From a virus (taxonomy: Duplodnaviria > Heunggongvirae > Uroviricota > Caudoviricetes), in IMG/VR virus record IMGVR_UViG_2585427757_000006: a stretch of DNA of 64,000 nucleotides; one strand, given 5' to 3'. This document shows positions 3,906-51,151 of the stretch, in pieces. A program made the position numbers and the translations under genes. Position 1 is the stretch's first letter; the number at the start of each line of letters is the position of its first letter. Below the pieces are notes generated by a model. That model saw only the letters and a program-made list of their open reading frames with translations, was not told where the DNA came from and did not search any database.

Positions 3906-4011
3906 CTCCTAAACAATTTGTTTTCTTATATGACTTATTATCTCAATCAACAAAAGGTAGAAAACAAATTGTTTTAGAGTTTGTTAAAGTCAGAAGGGGT
4001 TGTGTCTATAT

Positions 4012-7486: not shown

Positions 7487-7648
7487 GAGCGCCAGCGGCG
7501 AACATATGAGCTTCGGAAATACTAGACATTCTTAACTCCGTTGTTTTCTAGTTGTGGTTATTTTCACAAATAAGAAAAGATAGAAAACAATTTATTTAAG
7601 GCCACAACTTATGGCCTTTATTTATTCATGCCGAAGGATTTGTAGCGT

Positions 7649-10621: not shown

Positions 10622-11188
10622 TTAGAGTGCGTATTGCGTTTTGTGCGGCTGCTTATTCAAGTCATGGCGATGCGTGAGCTCCCGCATCATGTCTTCAAGG
10701 CGACTCTTTGTGTCGTCGAGCTGGTCGGCCATTGCACCTAAAAGCTGGCGAACGGCCATCGGATCGTCGCTGTTTAGTGATGGCATTTTAGAACCTGCTT
10801 TAGAAGACATAAGGTTGATTGCAGACATCAACATCGTTAGAGAGGATTTAAGCCCGGCAATTTCACGATCTTTGCTGGCAATAATCGTCTCACTTTTGTT
10901 ACCGTCATCAGTTTCTTGAGTCTCGCTCACCATATCCAAAGTCGCTTGCAACTTATCAGCTCTCTCTTTTTCAGCAAGGTAATGAACACCGAAATGGTGT
11001 GCCAAAGCTACAATCTGAGTTGGCTCTTCAAAGGTGGAATTAAAATTAAGTATTGTAAACAGTCTCTCAAATATGGAAACGTCTTCTATTCCTCGAAGAA
11101 TGGCTAACATTTTGACCAGTTCATTAGCATCCATTTCTTCGAATAAGGCGTTTTGTTCATCAGCTATTGCTTTGCATTTCTCGCACAT
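10622..11188 (-). CDS. hypothetical protein
   Basis: 188-aa ORF preceded by motif aaacaagttgttttcttat and an SD. Confidence 0.45.
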   Translation of the reverse strand: MCEKCKAIADEQNALFEEMDANELVKMLAILRGIEDVSIFERLFTILNFNSTFEEPTQIVALAHHFGVHYLAEKERADKLQATLDMVSETQETDDGNKSETIIASKDREIAGLKSSLTMLMSAINLMSSKAGSKMPSLNSDDPMAVRQLLGAMADQLDDTKSRLEDMMRELTHRHDLNKQPHKTQYAL

Positions 11189-11327
11189 GTGTTTTCCTTA
11201 ATGCTTAAACAAGTTGTTTTCTTATTGGTTTTATTGTGATGTGGCATAAAAGGGGAGCAAGCTAAACGTAAAGGTGCAAACTCTCTATTTCGGTCAACGA
11301 AACACAAGGGCCATTTGGCCCTTGTCA

Positions 11328-11486
11328 TTAACACTTTGCTTTACGAACTAACGGATAAGCGAAGTAGATCGCCAAACCAATGAGGACGCCATCAGAAATG
11401 ACAGACATCATCTTTCCCGTAAAATCCACCAACACCGCCATCACCAGAAGAGCAATGACGATCACAAGCCGGAATCTCTCAAGCAT
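11328..11486 (-). CDS. small hydrophobic membrane protein, 52 aa
   Basis: MLERFRLVIVIALLVMAVLV; start overlaps upstream stop in a TAATG arrangement; below the 60-aa track cutoff. Confidence 0.4.
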   Translation of the reverse strand: MLERFRLVIVIALLVMAVLVDFTGKMMSVISDGVLIGLAIYFAYPLVRKAKC

Positions 11487-11911
11487 TAGAGATAAGCATC
11501 CAGTGACAACTGAAGCGCCTGGGCGATCTTTTTCAGTGCCTGCTCTTCTTGTTCACCAATGCCGTCCTGATCGGCAATATCAAGGCACAGACACAGAACA
11601 TCGACCGCCTCTGGAGTACCCGCAATATCAGACAGCTCACGAATAGCCTGTGCATTAGCAGAACGAGGGGACGCTTCGTAACGAGCACGGATATTGGCGC
11701 TCATTTGGGCAATTTCACCAGCAAACGGAGAAAACGCAGGCAGAGCTGCAATTGTCTTCTCAAGAATGGCAATTTCTTTTGCGTCACATGTGCCGTCGGC
11801 ATAGGAGATCATGTACGCGCCCCACACGGTGGCCTCAACCGCATCACGGTTCTCCATTTTTTTGACTTCGATAACTGCTTTACGAGTTTTCTTTTTGAAG
11901 AAACCTAACAT
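11486..11911 (-). CDS. TerB-like domain protein
   Basis: Two DG-x-E repeats (YADGTCDAKEIAIL and IADQDGIGEQEEQALKKIA) resembling tellurite-resistance TerB. Confidence 0.45.
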   Translation of the reverse strand: MLGFFKKKTRKAVIEVKKMENRDAVEATVWGAYMISYADGTCDAKEIAILEKTIAALPAFSPFAGEIAQMSANIRARYEASPRSANAQAIRELSDIAGTPEAVDVLCLCLDIADQDGIGEQEEQALKKIAQALQLSLDAYL

Positions 11912-12004
11912 GTGTTTTCCTTTTGTTATTTGTCAAAACAAGTTGTTTTCTAGTTAAATAAATTGCTTACGCAAAGACGGTCAATGCATATGTACTAACA
12001 ACCG

Positions 12005-20981: not shown

Positions 20982-22124
20982 TTACAGGTCTGCAAACTGG
21001 CTTAGAGAAGCCTTATCCACGGTAGAATCGATCTGACCTACCAGATATGTGCTTTGCTCTGCCTCTTGTGGTGCAATTTGCAGTGTGTCGGTTAACAACC
21101 ACTTGTTCATCCAGACCAGCGGATCAGTGGTAACTTCTGGAAATAAAGCCTTCAGGCCAAGACGATTCATAGCCAGATTGGTGCGGTATTTTACATAGGT
21201 TTTGAGAATATCCGCGTTTAAACCAATCATCGAACCGTCTTTGAAGAGATAGTCTGCCCAGTTCATTTCTTGTTCGGCGACTGATTTCATGGTGTCGTAA
21301 ATGACGTTTTCTTCATCAGCAGCAATCTCTTTCCACAATAAACCTTCGCGACCGGTACGCATGAAGCGGATCATGCGTTCAGTTCCTTCGCAATGCAGAG
21401 CTTCATCACGGGCAATAAAGCGCATAATTTTGGTGTTACCCTCAAGCAACTTCCGTTCACCAAAGGCAAACGTACATGCAAAACTTACGTAGAAACGGAT
21501 CGCCTCAAGCGCATTAATGGACACCAACGTGCGGAAAAGCTGACGATGCAAAGGGTATGGCTCCCAGCCATATTCATTTACGTACAGACGCTCAAATTCC
21601 TTCTCACCTAACGACTGGCGCTCGCAGGTCATCCCATAAAGCCTGTCATATTCAGCAGAGATACTGATCGCTCGGTTGATGATTTCTTCATCCGTAACAA
21701 TGCCGTCAAAAACAATGCTCGGATCGTCCACCATGCCACGAATAATGTGGGTGTAGCTGCGGCTATGGATAGTCTCAGAGAAAGACCACGTTTCAACCCA
21801 CGTTTCCAGTTCAGGAATAGAGATAAGCGGCAGCAGCGTTGCATTTGGACTACGTCCCTGAACTGAATCGAGTAACGTTTGATAACGGAGATTGCTCAGA
21901 AAAATGTGACGTTCGTGGTCCCGCAGCTTCGTGTTGAAGTCGATACGATCGCTCGAAATATCAACTTCTTCCGGCCGCCAGAAGAAAGACAATTGACGTT
22001 CAATCAACTTTTCAAAATCACGGTATTTTTGCTGATCGTAACGTGCCACGTTGACAGATTGTCCGAGGAACATAGGCTCTTTGGTTGCATCATTAGCACC
22101 CAAACGGAACGTTGAATATGACAT
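20982..22124 (-). CDS. nrdB: ribonucleotide reductase class Ia beta subunit
   Basis: Diiron ligand pattern incl. EAIRFYVSF and ARDEALH; C-terminal tail; 380 aa. Confidence 0.9.
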
Positions 22125-22189
22125 GTGTTTTTCCTTTTTCTTTTTTGGTGCGTTTAAACAAGTTGTTATCTTATGTGTTTAAACAAGGC

Positions 22190-46102: not shown

Positions 46103-46558
46103 TCAACGGGGAGTAATAAAGCGTTCAGAGCCTAATCGCTCTAATTCAACGATGGCCATCTTTGACGCCTGAACGATCATGTCTCGGCGATGCGAAAAGG
46201 CGGCGACAGCATGTTTGTATATGTCTGCGATGTGCCGTGCTTCATCCAACTTCTGCCTTTTAGACAGATACTGTGGGTTTGTTTTAACCTTAGCGTCCAG
46301 TACAGATTCGTTGAACTTAATGCCGTTCATACTCAAGTTCTTACGCTCTGTGTCGTATAGCTTTGCTTCAACAGCTTCAAGGTTAAGTTTTGCCTCTGCG
46401 ACACTTCTTTCTGCATGAGCGAGTTTTGAGCCATACTCCATTAAAAGGCGGGGTTGTCTACGCCAGACTTCCTCCAGATTGTCTCGGTCAAACTCGAGAT
46501 CAGACATTATTTTCTCGTAAATATCGGCGATCATGCACATTTCCTTATCACTTATCAT
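46103..46558 (-). CDS. hypothetical protein, possibly UvsY-like recombination mediator
   Basis: 151-aa coiled-coil protein adjacent to the SSB-like and RecA-like genes; similarity only suggestive. Confidence 0.3.
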   Translation of the reverse strand: MISDKEMCMIADIYEKIMSDLEFDRDNLEEVWRRQPRLLMEYGSKLAHAERSVAEAKLNLEAVEAKLYDTERKNLSMNGIKFNESVLDAKVKTNPQYLSKRQKLDEARHIADIYKHAVAAFSHRRDMIVQASKMAIVELERLGSERFITPR

Positions 46559-46660
46559 TTTGTATTGATTATATCATTGTAATGATGAGGCAATGAGCTT
46601 GAAGATAGGGGGGGTGAGGGGATAAGGGAAAACATGGCCTTTATGGCCATGTTTATTGGA

Positions 46661-47830
46661 TCACGTCTTAATAGTTTCTGCTACGTCGGCTAATATCGCT
46701 TCTAGTCGTTCTCCCTCTTCAGGTCTGAAGTAAAGAATGTTGGGGTTAAACCCGTAAAAGACAGTAACGTCAAGGTCTGGAAGATACTCCTTCCTGCCGA
46801 CCAAATCGGATGGCTTGTTTTTGTTGTTAAACAATGAAGTTGCCCGGCTGCCACACGTCAGCACATAGGTCGGACGCACCAGATTGATCTCTTCACGCAT
46901 AAAGTCGGTGAACTGGCCGATCTCGTCTTTGGTGTAGTCTTTTTCTTTGTCTTTAACCTTCTTGCAAACACCTGTGACATAGAGATCGCCCATGCGTAAA
47001 TCTCCAGCCGTCAATAGCTTGGCCTTAAAGTCGTCGTATCCGTTCTCCATAAAGTAACCGGTTCGAGCATCATTGCCGTTCGCATTGTCCAGAATGATCA
47101 TGATTTTCGGCTTAATACCAATGCTGGGGCGGATTAGTTCATCACCTAAGCCCATTTCAGCCGCCATCCGCGTCATGAGTACGTTAATTTCAGCCGAACG
47201 TTTGGGGTTCATCTCAAACGGACGTGAGGCTTTAACTGCGTCTATGACAAGGTTTCCCATCAATTCAGCCTGGTCGCGTAGGCGCTCTGGATCAGTTGCT
47301 GGCAGACTGCCTGGCTCGATGGATGCAAACGCCCCTACTTTTTGCAGCGATTCGCGCACTCGACTATTACAGGCACGTTTCTCGACAGCTTCTTCGAATT
47401 GCGCCAGTGACTCGAATTTGCCGCCAACTTTTTCTCGCGCTCTCATGATGGCTTGGCAGCCATTCTCAGAACACCCCTTCACAGCAGAGAAGGGCGCATA
47501 CAGCACCTGGCTGCCATCTTCAAGCGTGCGGATCTCGATTCGGTTAGATGACACGTTAACGTCTGGTGGCAATACGCGAATGCCATAGGTCAGCGCATCT
47601 TTAACCAGCCCCTGGTGTTTATCTTCGCCAAGAATAGTGAGAGCAGCAGCGAAAAACTCTGCGGGATAATGAGTTTTCAACCACATAGATTGATAACTGA
47701 TTAAGGAGTAAGCAACAGAGTGTGATTTGTTGAAGGCATACGCGCCGGATTTCTCAAACATATTCCAGATTTCTTCGGCTCGTTCGTGCGTCAGGCCATT
47801 GCTCTCTTCGACAACACCGGTAATTTTCAT
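46661..47830 (-). CDS. dnaE: DNA polymerase III alpha (DnaE-like) C-terminal fragment
   Basis: AYAFNKSHSVAYSLISYQSMWLKTHYPAEFFAAAL matches the DnaE finger region; own start codon overlapping the HNH gene stop. Confidence 0.75.
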   Translation of the reverse strand: MKITGVVEESNGLTHERAEEIWNMFEKSGAYAFNKSHSVAYSLISYQSMWLKTHYPAEFFAAALTILGEDKHQGLVKDALTYGIRVLPPDVNVSSNRIEIRTLEDGSQVLYAPFSAVKGCSENGCQAIMRAREKVGGKFESLAQFEEAVEKRACNSRVRESLQKVGAFASIEPGSLPATDPERLRDQAELMGNLVIDAVKASRPFEMNPKRSAEINVLMTRMAAEMGLGDELIRPSIGIKPKIMIILDNANGNDARTGYFMENGYDDFKAKLLTAGDLRMGDLYVTGVCKKVKDKEKDYTKDEIGQFTDFMREEINLVRPTYVLTCGSRATSLFNNKNKPSDLVGRKEYLPDLDVTVFYGFNPNILYFRPEEGERLEAILADVAETIKT

Positions 47831-48561
47831 GCAGTCACCTCATCAATCTTCACGAACTCATCCCCATTGGAGGCCAGCCAGTTCCGTTGGCGCTCCCAGC
47901 TCCATATCTCTTCACGCATTTCACTATGCAGGCGAATGTGGGCGTCTTCTGGAAGTGCTACAAGATTCCCAGGGGCGTTATCTATCGTATCGCGGTTAAT
48001 ATGGTGGACATGTTCATCGTCACGTAGCTCCCGACCGAGACGTTCTTTCGCTATCAATCGATGAACGTATTCGTATTGCGAAACGCCATTGTTACCAACC
48101 AGCTGCATCATGTAGCCGTTGGTTTTTACGATGATGCCACCTTTGTAGTTGTTCGCTTCTTCTCCGATCTTTCCGCGTTTGGCAGCCGCCAGCTTTTCCT
48201 TCGTCTCCGCGCGGATTGTTCTGCCGGTTAGCTTTTTCGAAACGGTGGCCACTCGCTCATCGATATCAGCACGCAGACCGGCATTCCACGAGGTTTTCCC
48301 ATACATAGGGTTGCCAGTGCCAGTCCGGGCTTCGGAGAGACGCTTCATACGTTCGTCATTATTTTTGTTTTTGCCACGATTCCAGGCTGGGGTAGCGGAG
48401 ATCCGCGCGCTTCCGCGCCTGATCCCCCATTTGGCTAATAAGCGGTCAATATTTGCCTTGCTGCAACCAGCTTCGGCGGCAATGTCTTCTTTTCTCATCA
48501 GGTCAACCATGTAACGCTGACGTAACCATTCTTCTGTGATTTTGTACTTCGTACTCGGCAT
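47827..48561 (-). CDS. HNH homing endonuclease with NUMOD-like repeats
   Basis: EHVHHINRDTIDNAPGNLVALPEDAHIRLH HNH motif; NPMYGKTSWNAG repeats; own promoter-proximal motif. Confidence 0.8.
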   Translation of the reverse strand: MPSTKYKITEEWLRQRYMVDLMRKEDIAAEAGCSKANIDRLLAKWGIRRGSARISATPAWNRGKNKNNDERMKRLSEARTGTGNPMYGKTSWNAGLRADIDERVATVSKKLTGRTIRAETKEKLAAAKRGKIGEEANNYKGGIIVKTNGYMMQLVGNNGVSQYEYVHRLIAKERLGRELRDDEHVHHINRDTIDNAPGNLVALPEDAHIRLHSEMREEIWSWERQRNWLASNGDEFVKIDEVTA

Positions 48562-48609
48562 TTCTAAGACTCACTAAACAAATTGTTTTCTTATCTTATA
48601 AATTAATTC

Positions 48610-50973
48610 TCAAATATCGAAGCTCGTTATGTCGGCATTTATTGCCATTGCTTCGGCATAAGTGCGACGCTCACCATCAGCACAAAGTAGGCGTGCTGCT
48701 TTATGGATTTTTCTCGTAGAACCATCATCCAGTGACACTGTCACCCAGCCTTCCTCCGCTCGCTTAATGAAGTCGCCGCCAATGGATTTCATTTTCTCCA
48801 TATCTTTTTTCCCGATCGCTTTCCTGACCGAGTCTGCTTCCGCCATTGAGAACCCCGCCAAGATTCGCGTAGCAGCCATGATCTGTTCCTGATAAATCAG
48901 AACTCCGTTTGTGTCGCGAGAGATGTCGTCCAGCATTGGGTGTAAGGAATGTGGGGCCATGAAGCCTTTGGCCACGGACACATAATCGTCCAACATGCCG
49001 GATTGAATCGGGCCAGGTCGGAAGAGCGCAGTTGTAGCGACGACCGTTTTAAAGCTCATTGGCTCAATTCCACCACCTAAATCTTTAAGCAGCTTGCGCA
49101 TTGGGCCTGATTCAAGCTGGAATACGCCCTGTGTATACCCTGCAGCAAAACCATCCAGCACCTTGCGATCTTCAAGAGAAATGGCATCAAGATTGATATC
49201 TTCACCTGTGTTCTCTTTTATGTAGCGTTTTGCACTATCGAGCAAATCGAGAGTTGCCAGGCCAAGCACGTCCAGCTTAATTAGGCCCATAGCCTCGCAG
49301 TAACGCTTGTCAAATGCGATACAACGCGCGTCACCACGGCGTTCAACCGGTGTACGTTCTGTCAGAGGAACACCTGCTACGATCATCCCTGCCGCATGTC
49401 TACCAAAGCCACGCATAAGGCTTTGTAACTTGCAGGCTGCATTGAATGCATCAGGATATTTTGTTGCGTATTTGTCGAGACTTGCCAGTTGTTCGCGCAG
49501 CTCTTCCAATGGAAGGCTATCATCCTCGACGTTCTTCAGTTCTTTTGATACCGCCATATCTGCGGACTCCACACCATAAATACGAGCGGTGTCACGTAGT
49601 GCAGAGGCTGCGCCCAGGTAGGTGAAGTTCGGAATGCCTGCAACGTAATCTTCGCCGTAGCGTTCATTCAGATACTCGATCACCTCATGGCGACGTGCCT
49701 GGCTGAAGTCCAAGTCCGCATCCGGCAAGTCGAGACGCTCAGGGTTGATGAAACGCTCAAACAGAAGACCGTGACGGATTGGGTCGACGTTGGTTATGCC
49801 TATGCACCACGCCACCAGAGAACCGGCAGAGGAACCACGACCAGGCCCAACGGGAATGCCAGTTTCACGACTATGATTCATCAGATCGCGCACCATCAGG
49901 AAGTAACCACAGAATCCCAGGCGAGTCAGCGTGTCCATTTCGTACTTTAGCCGCTCAACATAAACCCTGTTCTCAGAAGCAGGTGGTGTGTATCCAAACT
50001 CTTTTGTGGTAAGACGTTTACGCAGCCCTGCAACAGCCAGTTTCATCAGCGTTGCAGGTTCGTCGTCTGCCATCTTGGGCAGTGCTGGTGGCAATTCATG
50101 CCAGCGCCATGTGCAGGCATCGATAATGGAGTCCTGCGTTGTTGAGGCCATTGCAGCTGTTACCGGCACATCCATGCGAACGGAGAAGGCTTTAAGCGCC
50201 TCAAGGAGATGGCGACGACCATTGATGGCGTTATCTCGCTGGTGGGGGATACGCAGACGATGCGGCTGGTCGATTTTTATGTTGTTCGTAACCATGTGCG
50301 CAATGTCTTTAATGTCTGCATCGTCGATCGATTCGTAATAAGCGGGATAGAACGCCACTGGCTCTATTTTCAATGCGCTGGCGACTTTCATCGCCCGGAC
50401 GTTAATCTGGTCGTAGAATGGGGTAGGGTGCGGATAAACCACACTATAGAAGTTGTCTTTTCCACCCGCTGTAATCAGTGTGCTTATGATTTTTGCAAAA
50501 TCGTTGCGTTGGAACACGCTACCGATGTCGGAAGTAAGCAGGATGATGTTGCCTTTGGCATATGTAGAAACCAACTGTTCGAGCGAGAGACGCGGCACAA
50601 AGTAGAACTGTTCTCGTGTGTTGGCCACCGTCATTAGTTCGCAGATGTCGCGATATCCTTGCTCATTTTTAATTAGAGCGGTAAACGAGTAGTTACGTCC
50701 CCGCTCTAATGATTCCATACATCTCATAGATTCTTTAGCAAGTTTAGCCCGGTGCTCGTATGTGGGATCATCAACAATGTTTAGTTTCACACCACAAATA
50801 ACCGCCATGTCGTCACCAGCGGCACGTTGTAGTGGAATAACGCTCGCAATATTCATGCTATCTGCTGAAATTACAGCGGTGTAGCCAGCTTCTCTGGCAA
50901 TCTTCACCGCGTTTTCAGCTTTTAGAGCCGACTCCCCAAGTGAGAAGTCAGTTCGAACCATCAGTGCCTTCAT
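48610..50973 (-). CDS. dnaE: DNA polymerase III alpha (DnaE-like) N-terminal fragment (PHP and polymerase core)
   Basis: GIPVGPGRGSSAGSLVAWCIGIT, DADLDF, KLDVLGLATLD, ALFRPGP; homology ends 44 codons before the stop. Confidence 0.8.
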   Translation of the reverse strand: MKALMVRTDFSLGESALKAENAVKIAREAGYTAVISADSMNIASVIPLQRAAGDDMAVICGVKLNIVDDPTYEHRAKLAKESMRCMESLERGRNYSFTALIKNEQGYRDICELMTVANTREQFYFVPRLSLEQLVSTYAKGNIILLTSDIGSVFQRNDFAKIISTLITAGGKDNFYSVVYPHPTPFYDQINVRAMKVASALKIEPVAFYPAYYESIDDADIKDIAHMVTNNIKIDQPHRLRIPHQRDNAINGRRHLLEALKAFSVRMDVPVTAAMASTTQDSIIDACTWRWHELPPALPKMADDEPATLMKLAVAGLRKRLTTKEFGYTPPASENRVYVERLKYEMDTLTRLGFCGYFLMVRDLMNHSRETGIPVGPGRGSSAGSLVAWCIGITNVDPIRHGLLFERFINPERLDLPDADLDFSQARRHEVIEYLNERYGEDYVAGIPNFTYLGAASALRDTARIYGVESADMAVSKELKNVEDDSLPLEELREQLASLDKYATKYPDAFNAACKLQSLMRGFGRHAAGMIVAGVPLTERTPVERRGDARCIAFDKRYCEAMGLIKLDVLGLATLDLLDSAKRYIKENTGEDINLDAISLEDRKVLDGFAAGYTQGVFQLESGPMRKLLKDLGGGIEPMSFKTVVATTALFRPGPIQSGMLDDYVSVAKGFMAPHSLHPMLDDISRDTNGVLIYQEQIMAATRILAGFSMAEADSVRKAIGKKDMEKMKSIGGDFIKRAEEGWVTVSLDDGSTRKIHKAARLLCADGERRTYAEAMAINADITSFDI

Positions 50974-51151
50974 GTGTTTTTACCTTTCTGGTTTTTTTGA
51001 TTTTGTCATTGGGGAAGCCTACGAACTTCCCATGCATCGAAATCGCAACTTCTTTTGCTGATTGGTGACAATCGGGCTTGTCTGGACACACCAGACAAGC
51101 CTTACCAGTTTCAGAAGCAGCGATAAGAGAGCCGAAACATCCTTTACGCAC
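50948..51151 (-). CDS. small cysteine-containing protein
   Basis: 67-aa ORF with CLVCPDKPDC. Confidence 0.3.
   Translation of the reverse strand: MRKGCFGSLIAASETGKACLVCPDKPDCHQSAKEVAISMHGKFVGFPNDKIKKTRKVKTHEGTDGSN

Follow-up and report, generated by a model that had tools for sequence, protein, structure and literature searches.

A dnaE gene in two pieces around an HNH gene

The window, the whole stretch of 64,000 nt that was analysed, is an SSU5-like E. coli phage-plasmid with an IncFIB-like replicon, and the records matching it are plasmids from isolates. ORF calling found three ORFs on its minus strand, dnaE-N (48610..50973), an HNH gene (47827..48561) and dnaE-C (46661..47830), and Pfam domains bear out the earlier note's description of a dnaE in two genes around a free-standing HNH gene. 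dnaE-N encodes a 787-aa N-terminal fragment of a Pol III alpha-type polymerase, with the PHP domain, the palm with its acidic motifs (PDADLDF and KLDVLGL), and the greater part of the fingers (Pfam: PHP; DNA_pol3_alpha, E 6e-74; DNA_pol3_finger, E 1e-44); its residues 1-655 are 99% identical to the intact DnaE of PhiR41_1. The 389-aa C-terminal fragment encoded by dnaE-C comprises the last part of the fingers, including the FNKSH motif, a helix-hairpin-helix domain and a C-terminal UDG-like domain (Pfam: HHH_6, E 5e-17; UDG, E 0.005), and matches phrog_405 at positions 768-1173.

The gene between them encodes a homing endonuclease of 244 aa, with a NUMOD3 DNA-binding motif and a C-terminal HNH_3 nuclease (Pfam, HNH_3 at E 1e-7), that matches phrog_21964 across its full length. 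We found this gene only within dnaE of SSU5-like plasmids, plus one homologue, 39.5% identical, at the same site in an Aeromonas plasmid. It is separated from the dnaE-N stop by a 48-nt spacer (48562..48609, minus strand), and, as previously noticed, it has its own start and an upstream motif: the palindromic AAGAAAACAATTTGTTTAG lies at 48574-48592, occurs six times in the window (0.02 expected), sits upstream of nrdB-like and other gene starts, and is kept in the Enterobacter, Cronobacter and Buttiauxella cassettes described below. The HNH gene stands behind a motif common to other DNA-metabolism genes of the element. The translation signals of dnaE-C (47827..47841, minus strand) consist of a GAGGTG Shine-Dalgarno sequence (47836-47841), a 5-nt spacer and an ATG within the ATGA at 47827-47830, in which the HNH stop overlaps the dnaE-C start as had been reported; dnaE-C has a strong ribosome-binding site of its own, and its start is coupled to the stop of the HNH gene. 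The split is not an assembly artefact, since it is present in 25 plasmid records, with the HNH ORF unbroken in 25/25 (tblastn), and in 23 of 5,426 complete E. coli genomes.

Mosaic structure, spread and recurrence of the break

Together the two pieces measure 1176 aa (787 + 389), within the 1168-1178 aa of intact proteins, and the intact 1172-aa dnaE of phages PhiR41_1 and SSU5 makes the locus an insertion polymorphism. When the junction is fused, 75 residues separate the conserved F and W anchors, the same number as in the long intact forms, and the position corresponds to a lineage-specific insert between residues 788 and 789 of Taq Pol III alpha. Many intact alleles carry this insert contiguously, with a loop that varies in length at the break. 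The sequence upstream of the dnaE-N tail aligns with native DnaE, and the tail itself, which had been taken for about 44 non-homologous codons, aligns to residues of intact SSU5-type DnaE and is homologous. Nor do RAEEGW, 44 codons upstream of the break, and ERAEEIW, 17 codons downstream, represent a duplication made by the insertion, as had been proposed: they flank the insert, one on each side, and their equivalents in intact alleles are QAQAGW and MKAKEIW. We looked for an intact allele with the window's cassette-type junction sequence and found none.

Identity profiles against intact and split alleles delimit a cassette of ~1.25 kb (47735..48990, minus strand) that comprises the last ~127 codons of dnaE-N, the spacer, the HNH gene and the first ~32 codons of dnaE-C, with a sharp downstream boundary at the FNKSH codons. 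Within this tract the window is 94-99% identical to the split alleles of Enterobacter, Cronobacter and Buttiauxella plasmids and only 50-66% identical to the intact dnaE of PhiR41_1 and SSU5; beyond its limits, identity is 98-100% to PhiR41_1 and 75-90% to the same Enterobacter, Cronobacter and Buttiauxella carriers. Synonymous divergence is likewise lower in the cassette than in the backbone (dS 0.16-0.51 vs. 0.8-1.5). These comparisons demonstrate a mosaic gene and the horizontal spread of its junction cassette, and identity that is high among carriers but low against intact alleles is the signature of homing with co-conversion. We infer that the endonuclease cleaved intact alleles, and that the cassette, the HNH/NUMOD3 gene with its flanking dnaE codons, would have been copied, through break-induced recombination, into a dnaE that otherwise resembles that of PhiR41_1.

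The same break recurs with other endonucleases or with none. A Buttiauxella plasmid keeps the 787- and 389-aa pieces with the HNH gene deleted down to a 66-nt spacer, and its split allele retains its own start codon and ribosome-binding site. An unrelated NUMOD4-HNH gene occupies the same break in plasmids of E. albertii, Klebsiella and Acinetobacter and in the Klebsiella phage vB_KpnS_p4727, and 242 plasmid records contain it at ≥90% identity. An Aeromonas jandaei plasmid carries the 39.5%-identical HNH gene at this break with the ...ETA*/ATGA junction of the window, and here too the junction is mosaic; the sister allele from A. caviae is intact and without the insert. When 1.84 billion representative proteins were searched exhaustively with a profile, the full-length matches were mostly N-fragments of 756-791 aa that stop where the insert stops. 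Such full-length fragments are kept in at least 10 clusters, each a single 50%-identity group, and the N-fragment clusters at 90% identity have hundreds to more than 1,000 members (P0108, 1105; P0119, 383). The homology of the tail, the movement of the junction as a cassette, the wide distribution of the break and the half-intein likeness of the insert (see below) had all been overlooked in the earlier reading.

HNH and NUMOD4-type endonucleases are frequently encoded by introns in phage polymerase genes (e.g. I-HmuI), which would fit a self-splicing group I intron around the endonuclease gene and an mRNA spliced to one reading frame. The junctions make this hardly credible: there were no Rfam matches in 46500-49300 at E ≤ 10, and the window offers just 48 nt between the dnaE-N stop and the HNH start and none between the HNH stop and the dnaE-C start, whose codons overlap. 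The cassettes of Klebsiella and Aeromonas have an HNH start that adjoins or overlaps the stop of dnaE-N; at the downstream end, the HNH stop lies 20 nt ahead of the dnaE-C start in Klebsiella and overlaps it in Aeromonas; in Buttiauxella, the 66-nt spacer and the retained translation signals also speak against splicing.

Purifying selection on the three ORFs

All three ORFs are under purifying selection. Among carriers, dN/dS is 0.02-0.06 in the cassette's N-tail region, 0-0.03 in its C-head, 0.013-0.022 in dnaE-C and ~0.2 in the HNH gene. For the insert by itself it is 0-0.24, and in the NUMOD4-type cassette the insert gives 0.28-0.56, a value that derives from very few substitutions and counts against the reading we prefer.

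The earlier note had left a two-piece polymerase and an inactivated gene side by side, and the evidence favours the former. If insertion had inactivated dnaE, the ORFs would be decaying remnants, tolerated while the plasmid replicates with host enzymes; the IncFIB-like replicon and the origin of the records as plasmids from isolates fit this, and carriage in isolates by itself says nothing on DnaE function, because plasmid maintenance may use the host replisome. Against inactivation stand the dN/dS of 0.02-0.06 in the dnaE codons of the cassette, whose evolution has been confined to the split state, the lack of any frameshift in five type-A carriers (the window, Enterobacter, Cronobacter and Buttiauxella, plus annotated records), the size and number of the N-fragment clusters, and the split form in the phage record vB_KpnS_p4727. 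We regard decay as improbable, since low dN/dS after the split and diverged lineages that keep full-length fragments with the same end residue both argue, at the level of sequence, for a working polymerase in two pieces.

An intein-like insert at the break

The insert is a beta-rich segment of ~57 aa in the polymerase fingers. Its N-terminal part is the dnaE-N tail (aa 743-787, WVTVSL...ITSFDI; 48613..48747, minus strand), which resembles residues ~55-100 of DnaE-type IntN, and its last beta-strand is the dnaE-C head (MKITGVVEESN; 47798..47830, minus strand), corresponding to the first strand of IntC. Aligned by hhalign with the verified Npu and Ssp DnaE inteins, the insert reached Prob 86% and P 5e-6, with scores of 35.5 and 33.7 vs. 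10.1 ± 2.0 for a column-shuffled null (maximum 17.8), and the register was unchanged with non-DnaE inteins. In a PDB-wide hmmsearch the top natural matches were DnaE inteins (E 2e-4 to 5e-3, IntN residues ~60-102). AF2 models of contiguous inserts render the segment of the dnaE-C head as a confident strand (residues 52-57 and 52-59; pLDDT ~80-84), and when the hhalign alignment is extended, at low confidence, ITGVVEESNG pairs with IKIATRKYLG of Npu IntC. The break falls within ~3 residues of the natural IntN/IntC split site. The insert is similar to inteins in both sequence and fold; most likely it descends from a DnaE-type intein of which one half survives, the later half of IntN together with the opening strand of IntC.

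The same two-piece polymerase and mobile cassette could have arisen around a native small beta-domain, its intein likeness being convergent and the endonucleases landing in a permissive surface loop. Pfam intein and Hint models gave no match at E ≤ 10, the search of 1.84 billion representative proteins recovered no full-length intein at this DnaE site, and the many contiguous alleles, with their variable loop at the break, also fit a native domain. Three independent approaches, however, agree on the intein family and register, DnaE inteins in particular give the nearest sequence matches, the break lies within ~3 residues of the natural split site, and in Aeromonas the insert and the endonuclease arrive together in a backbone whose sister allele lacks the insert; we hold a native domain to be rather unlikely. 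The contiguous alleles, in which the insert is unsplit, do mean that the domain may serve a role unrelated to assembly.

Whether the tail and the head of the C-fragment contain intein blocks had been raised earlier, and the answer is divided: part of the fold is present, and the splicing residues are all missing. The order of N-piece, endonuclease gene and C-piece, the likeness of the tail to IntN, and a break ~20 residues upstream of the cyanobacterial DnaE intein site would suit a working split intein, which would trans-splice tail and head into a contiguous DnaE as in cyanobacteria and 'fractured genes'. We consider this very improbable, given that the insert has no starting Cys or Ser, no terminal His-Asn and no +1 Cys, Ser or Thr (the next residue is Gly), that the sequence upstream of the tail aligns with native DnaE, and that intact relatives keep the insert permanently. 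Tail and head also come to only ~57 aa, vs. 88-105 aa for published split IntN plus IntC (PMC2677866).

We therefore prefer, as a reasonably likely account, a functional 'fractured gene' in which a split intein has degenerated into a docking module that no longer splices. The break is not randomly placed, lying within the relic and within ~3 residues of the place where split inteins divide and inteins carry their endonuclease, and the relic cannot splice because block A (Cys1), blocks F and G (His-Asn) and the +1 nucleophile are lost. The 45-aa dnaE-N tail and the ~11-aa dnaE-C head would instead re-form a mini-domain non-covalently by strand complementation, joining the palm on the N piece to the FNKSH/HhH part on the C piece in one active polymerase. 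The remnant probably holds the two polymerase pieces together; physical assembly through it, and polymerase activity of the complex, are what we infer.

A precedent for a split enzyme is nrdA-a/mobE/nrdA-b of Aeromonas phage Aeh1 (Friedrich et al., 2007; Crona et al., 2011, PMC3045599), where an essential DNA-metabolism enzyme is likewise divided by a free-standing endonuclease gene, without RNA or protein splicing. Assembly of the active Aeh1 enzyme depends on short tails at the break, both C- and N-terminal, a role that we propose for the tails here; the Aeh1 tails are described as unique and as having arisen with the insertion, whereas those of dnaE belong to a fold that was already there and bears an intein signature, the enzyme here is a replicative polymerase of the C family, and the break is ancient and shared by many lineages with different endonucleases. 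Gene 43 (PolB) of some T4-related Aeromonas phages is reportedly also split, according to Petrov, Karam and colleagues, its 43A and 43B parts being separated by an endonuclease gene or a short spacer: a replicative polymerase that works as two polypeptides after a homing-endonuclease-associated insertion, although of family B rather than C, and to our knowledge with no intein-like junction reported.

Cyanobacterial split DnaE, with exteins of ~774 and 423 aa, is the same host protein in fragments of similar size (787 and 389 aa here), broken in the same fingers region, ~20 residues from the FNKSH motif. Its inteins are the relic's best sequence and fold matches; unlike the pieces here, the cyanobacterial halves lie at separate loci and trans-splice, with IntN (102-123 aa) and IntC (36 aa) both complete, and the insertion site, AEY|CFNKSH, is a different one (Ssp and Npu; Wu et al., 1998; Caspi et al., 2003, as cited in PMC2677866).

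In the 'fractured genes' of Dassa et al. [quoted passage not shown] Shared with them are a replication gene in two, with both halves at one locus in the same orientation, an endonuclease gene between them that brings regulatory elements along, a variant without that gene in which the break is retained, and intein-like fragment ends and starts that meet at the IntN/IntC boundary. Here, by contrast, only about half of the Hint fold remains, with none of the splicing residues, which makes ligation of the pieces impossible, and intact polymerases carry the relic too, in unsplit form. In place of GIY-YIG or Vsr-like enzymes there are endonucleases of the HNH/NUMOD3 and NUMOD4-HNH types, and in place of marine metagenomes the hosts are phage-plasmids of enterobacteria, Aeromonas and Acinetobacter that are in culture and clinically common.

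The two polymerase pieces and the gene between them

We found three minus-strand open reading frames at the locus: an N-terminal polymerase piece (dnaE-N, 48610-50973, 787 aa) with the PHP domain and the Pol III alpha palm and fingers domains, an HNH gene (47827-48561, 244 aa; HNH_3, E = 1e-7; NUMOD3, E = 3e-6), and a C-terminal piece (dnaE-C, 46661-47830, 389 aa) in which an HhH domain precedes a weakly UDG-like C-terminus. The HNH frame stands apart, with its own ATG and out of frame with dnaE, and the reading frames and their Pfam domains bear out the claim of an earlier note that dnaE is split in two by a free-standing HNH gene. A sequencing error or frameshift was ruled out by the HNH gene's own domains and by the recurrence of the arrangement in 25 independent plasmid records.

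The window is an E. coli phage-plasmid of the SSU5-like kind. Its region from 46400 to 51200 matches the Escherichia phages CMS-2020a, PhiR41_1 and Cyrano and the Salmonella phage SSU5, always in two pieces with ~800 bp skipped, and this region shares 99.9% identity with E. coli plasmids such as NZ_CP031136. Intact DnaE of PhiR41_1 and SSU5 (1172 aa) covers both fragments end to end in the alignment that the earlier note had proposed, and two of its details changed as a result. The '44 non-homologous codons' at the end of dnaE-N do align with these intact proteins, though they are far more diverged than the rest, and RAEEGW and ERAEEIW, taken there for a duplication flanking the break, correspond to QAQAGW and MKAKEIW of the intact alleles, native segments that bracket a lineage-specific insert and not the endonuclease gene.

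The PHP, palm, fingers and HhH domains of a C-family Pol III alpha are all present, their Pfam matches divided over both fragments, and an intact relative matches the Pol III alpha structures of Taq, E. coli and M. tuberculosis by phmmer (E = 1e-109 to 1e-121). Since the palm acidic motifs lie in dnaE-N, and the FNKSH motif and HhH domain in dnaE-C, polymerase activity should need both pieces. The OB-fold and tau-binding region of bacterial DnaE were not found; the polymerase's C-terminal ~145-150 aa (46667-47101) give only a weak match (Pfam UDG, E = 0.005) and also match phrog_4335 and phrog_13175, families of unknown function. Annotation pipelines, PGAP among them, name the whole dnaE-C fragment 'uracil-DNA glycosylase', and a fusion of a polymerase with a UDG-family domain may merit separate study. 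Two further PHROGs, both called DNA polymerase, divide dnaE-N between them (phrog_13169, 463 aa, matches residues 1-414; phrog_21652, 476 aa, matches 371-785), so that some phages of that collection may carry another break near residue 400. A 67-aa cysteine-rich frame (50948-51151, minus strand) runs over the start of dnaE-N; SSU5 (SSU5_051) and E. albertii both have it, annotated as a hypothetical protein, so its position is conserved.

Genes for a CobS-like AAA ATPase, a CobT-like protein, a gp32-like SSB and a 5'-3' exonuclease, neighbours of dnaE, make up a replication module. The 48-nt spacer between the dnaE-N stop and the HNH start contains a palindromic motif (AAGAAAACAATTTGTTTAG, 48574-48592), whose consensus, AAGAAAACAAnTTGTTTAr, occurs six times in the window against 0.02 expected: once on the plus strand (7581-7599) and otherwise on the minus strand (3909-3927, 11205-11223, 11934-11952, 22154-22172 and the spacer copy). 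Every copy lies shortly upstream of a gene start, at 10-30 nt from an nrdB-like gene (20982-22124), a terB-like gene (11486-11911), a phrog_5508 gene (10622-11188) and the HNH gene, and the motif probably serves the element's DNA-metabolism genes as an operator or promoter. A simple consensus scan of the minus strand of the region returned no sigma-70-like promoter and no terminator-like site, with counts at or below the shuffled expectation. The ribosome-binding site is weak for the HNH gene and strong for dnaE-C (GAGGTG, 47836-47841), where an ATGA (47827-47830) overlaps the HNH stop with the dnaE-C start, confirming the new methionine that the earlier note had assigned to this piece. Expression of dnaE-C would rest on its strong ribosome-binding site and on coupling to the end of the HNH gene, itself placed behind the motif common to the DNA-metabolism genes.

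A cassette shared among split alleles

We compared the window in sliding steps with the intact PhiR41_1 dnaE and with the split alleles of Enterobacter asburiae, Cronobacter sakazakii and Buttiauxella plasmids, and a cassette of ~1.25 kb (~48990-47735), from the end of dnaE-N to the start of dnaE-C, emerged. Outside it, the window is 98-100% identical to the intact PhiR41_1 gene and 75-90% identical to these split alleles; inside it, identity is 50-66% to intact alleles and 94-99% to the same split alleles. Downstream, the tract stops abruptly at the FNKSH codons (~47735); upstream, its edge varies somewhat among carriers. Synonymous divergence is lower in the cassette (0.16-0.51) than in the backbones (0.8-1.5). 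The absence of the HNH gene from PhiR41_1, so nearly identical outside the tract, makes this a presence/absence polymorphism with co-converted flanks, the pattern expected of free-standing endonuclease homing with co-conversion of flanking exon sequence, in which cleavage itself is presumed from sequence comparison. Flanks so unlike those of intact alleles could also abolish the endonuclease target in the cassette's own allele. A group I intron around the endonuclease gene is contradicted here: the tract has no Rfam match, hence no conserved intron core RNA was detected, and the non-coding room for an intron is lacking.

At 95% protein identity or more, 26 plasmid records carry the cassette-type tail, and the next-best matches stand at 70%; with nothing between 70% and 95% in plasmids or phages, no intact allele of this junction type is known. 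A word-indexed protein search with a 133-aa tail returned short fragments only. The HNH gene is intact in 25 plasmid records; it turned up in 23 of 5,426 complete E. coli genomes, plasmid-borne in every case, and its close relatives in a collection of 5.8 billion protein clusters occur only in this context.

The same break is found with other endonuclease genes and with none. In Buttiauxella p1WJP83 the 787- and 389-aa pieces are separated by a 66-nt spacer that keeps the motif, the HNH start codon and the last HNH nucleotides, which indicates that the endonuclease gene was deleted and the break stayed. An unrelated NUMOD4-HNH-HTH gene occupies a break at the same residue in E. albertii, Klebsiella and Acinetobacter plasmids and in the Klebsiella phage vB_KpnS_p4727 (242 plasmid records at at least 90% identity; ~97 Acinetobacter records at about 42%). 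An Aeromonas jandaei plasmid carries the break with a homologue 39.5% identical to the window's HNH protein and with an ...ETA*/ATGA junction likewise. Two-piece polymerases are encoded by roughly a third of the SSU5-like plasmids in PLSDB and by most Acinetobacter relatives. An exhaustive profile search of 1.84 billion representative proteins gave 54 matches, of which most full-length ones are N-fragments of 756-791 aa that stop where the N part of the insert ends, some with a canonical bacterial-type N-terminus; the insert is contiguous in only one full-length match. Taken together, these occurrences indicate an old, widespread and stable split state.

We estimated dN/dS among carriers, in which the cassette-borne dnaE codons have evolved only in the split state. 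The N-tail region gave 0.02-0.06 (13-33 synonymous vs. 1-5 non-synonymous differences), the C-head 0-0.03, the HNH gene about 0.2 and the insert alone 0-0.24. This substitution pattern indicates that selection maintains the two polymerase pieces; neither RNA nor protein splicing seems to join them, given that no intron was detected and that the splicing residues are missing. That the insertion simply inactivated dnaE, the other outcome allowed by the earlier note, is contradicted by these selection data and by the many long-lived split lineages.

An intein-like insert in the polymerase fingers

When an intact relative was aligned with Taq Pol III alpha, its residue 739 paired with Taq 788 and its residue 792 was the next to align, with Taq 789. 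The fingers of this DnaE family thus contain an insert of ~52-57 aa, within which the break falls. From the conserved F anchor to the conserved W anchor, the window's tail plus head come to 75 residues, the same as in the long contiguous forms of Xenorhabdus-type relatives, so the break leaves the residue count unchanged. Tail (dnaE-N residues 743-787) and head (the first ~11 aa of dnaE-C) are present, fused, in SSU5-type intact alleles. Canonical DnaE lacks them, and so do intact Aeromonas and Acinetobacter alleles, namely the insert-free, canonical-looking proteins of Aeromonas caviae pNY4625-IMP and of one Acinetobacter baumannii plasmid. The A. jandaei split protein is 80-98% identical to that of A. 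caviae along the backbone and only 56-58% around the junction, where it resembles the enterobacterial and Acinetobacter cassettes more than it does elsewhere. Together, the insert-free allele and this mosaic junction argue that in Aeromonas the insert arrived with the endonuclease gene.

Contiguous forms include the 1172-aa SSU5 type, a 1168-aa E. coli type and others of 1173-1210 aa. The 1168-aa type (related proteins P0021-P0107, on many E. coli and Shigella plasmids) has a junction like that of the NUMOD4 cassette, shorter by 8 residues exactly at the break, and is either the uninvaded target of the NUMOD4-type endonuclease or an allele re-fused after its imprecise loss. In some E. coli relatives (proteins P0094, 1075 aa; P0112, 950 aa; P0137, 879 aa), dnaE is cut short at or before the insert and joined in frame with a RecA-like protein (PF00154), as deletion or fusion variants that begin at the same hotspot.

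Pfam returned nothing for the insert at E ≤ 10, intein models included. A profile-profile comparison set the insert alignment against the Npu and Ssp DnaE split inteins, the Npu sequence having been verified against PDB 2keq and 4kl5. The stretch from RAEEGW to the end of dnaE-N matched residues 49-101 of IntN, the N-terminal half of the split intein (hhalign probability 86%, P = 5e-6), a six-intein profile gave 81%, and four non-DnaE inteins aligned in the same register (P = 6e-4). The scores of 35.5 and 33.7 lie ~12 sd above those of column-shuffled alignments (10.1 ± 2.0, max 17.8, n = 143), and reversed alignments scored 10.9 and 10.5. An HMM search of all PDB sequences placed DnaE inteins as the best natural matches (E = 2e-4 to 5e-3, at IntN ~60-102; E = 2e-4 for 7qil by hmmsearch). 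De novo TIM barrels outranked inteins in that search and were judged artefacts, their scores summing four repeats, each with E > 8. At the level of sequence, then, the insert is significantly similar to known inteins.

AlphaFold models of two different contiguous inserts from relatives (pLDDT 80.4 and 78.7) show a small beta-rich domain that comprises a helix, strands at 9-14 and 19-23 (in the first model also at 27-30 and 33-36) and a closing strand at 52-57/59. In structure comparisons of each model, inteins or bacterial intein-like domains made up 20 of the 21 top matches, with modest scores, and Foldseek ranked inteins first with non-significant E-values. The profile-profile, PDB HMM and model comparisons agree with one another. 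Along a gapless alignment dnaE-N ends three residues short of the IntN end, and the dnaE-C head (MKITGVV...), which supplies the final strand of the model, is paired with the opening strand of IntC, the C-terminal half, in a low-confidence extension.

The insert (~57 aa) matches only IntN ~55-102 and the start of IntC. A check of tail and head for intein blocks, which the earlier note had suggested, returned the likeness to IntN and none of the splicing elements: block A and its Cys1 are missing, as are the His-Asn of blocks F and G and any Cys, Ser or Thr just behind the insert, where Gly comes next. A complete split intein, with six Hint motifs and five catalytic residues (Cys1, Thr/His of block B, the terminal Asn and the +1 Cys), is not what lies here, and the sequence upstream of the tail is native DnaE. 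On these grounds splicing is judged impossible, and intact relatives carry the insert permanently; a functional, trans-splicing split intein is contradicted by the missing catalytic residues and by a relic that is too small.

The most serious rival holds that the insert is a beta-domain native to this DnaE clade and that its likeness to inteins is convergent. The modest structural scores speak for it, as does the fact that no complete intein was found at this DnaE site; we consider it unlikely. The most far-reaching interpretation, advanced tentatively as quite possible, is that the insert is the lone surviving lobe of a DnaE-type intein, now a non-splicing heterodimerisation module. It would be moved among polymerase genes by whichever homing endonuclease holds its split site, adding a domain to the recipient and rendering the break harmless, and the contiguous alleles of 1168-1178 aa would be re-fused split descendants.

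Proposed docking of the pieces, and precedents

The regions by which split-intein fragments recognise each other are said, in work by Shah et al. from 2013, to be the second half of IntN and the first half of IntC, which we take to be the parts retained in the relic. With these recognition parts retained, we propose that tail and head re-form the mini-domain by strand complementation and so would hold the two pieces of the polymerase together as a docking unit. Fragments of natural split inteins first recognise each other via disordered IntN and IntC regions and then co-fold (review, PMC11766414).

In a fractured gene, an endonuclease gene lies between two gene halves, with intein parts at the break (Dassa et al., 2009, PMC2677866). 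The locus described here is alike in that the gene is broken within one locus, with an endonuclease gene between the halves and intein-like parts at the break; unlike those cases, its putative split intein is a single lobe and would not splice. It may represent a fractured gene whose split intein shrank to one lobe as splicing was lost. In Aeh1 nrdA/mobE, the tails at the break are essential to assemble the active enzyme, without splicing (Crona et al., 2011, PMC3045599). As with Aeh1 NrdA, both dnaE halves appear to be retained under selection without RNA or protein splicing, and by analogy the locus probably works in the same way.

Homing endonucleases that split polymerase or reductase genes, and fractured genes with split inteins, are already known. 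What seems new is that a half-intein without splicing ability sits at the break, that it persists in intact alleles and that it is prevalent in clinically common plasmids; our literature search returned no description of a split dnaE or an intein relic in SSU5-like phage-plasmids. Clinical E. coli, Klebsiella, Enterobacter and Acinetobacter commonly harbour these elements, whose two-piece polymerase is apparently undescribed. The locus links two ways of surviving endonuclease insertion, trans-splicing split inteins and non-covalent tails, and suggests that decay can turn an intein into a lasting structural component of an essential enzyme; if the lone-lobe reading is true, intein decay has a natural end state that is neither loss nor splicing. 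Should the relic alone give tight assembly, it would be a very small natural docking pair (~45 + 11 residues) with no splicing chemistry left.

Cultivable hosts also offer a natural allele series for tests of the homing cycle: intact alleles with and without the insert, and split alleles with one endonuclease, with the other, with a decayed one or with none. The E. albertii plasmid p3RM15116 (record L006; 3284-4029 and 5252-5952) is a reduced, 62-kb phage-plasmid derivative with a split dnaE. Its NUMOD4-HNH gene is frameshifted into frames of 40 and 193 aa, a decaying endonuclease, and hdeA/hdeB acid-chaperone genes are inserted just downstream of the split dnaE.
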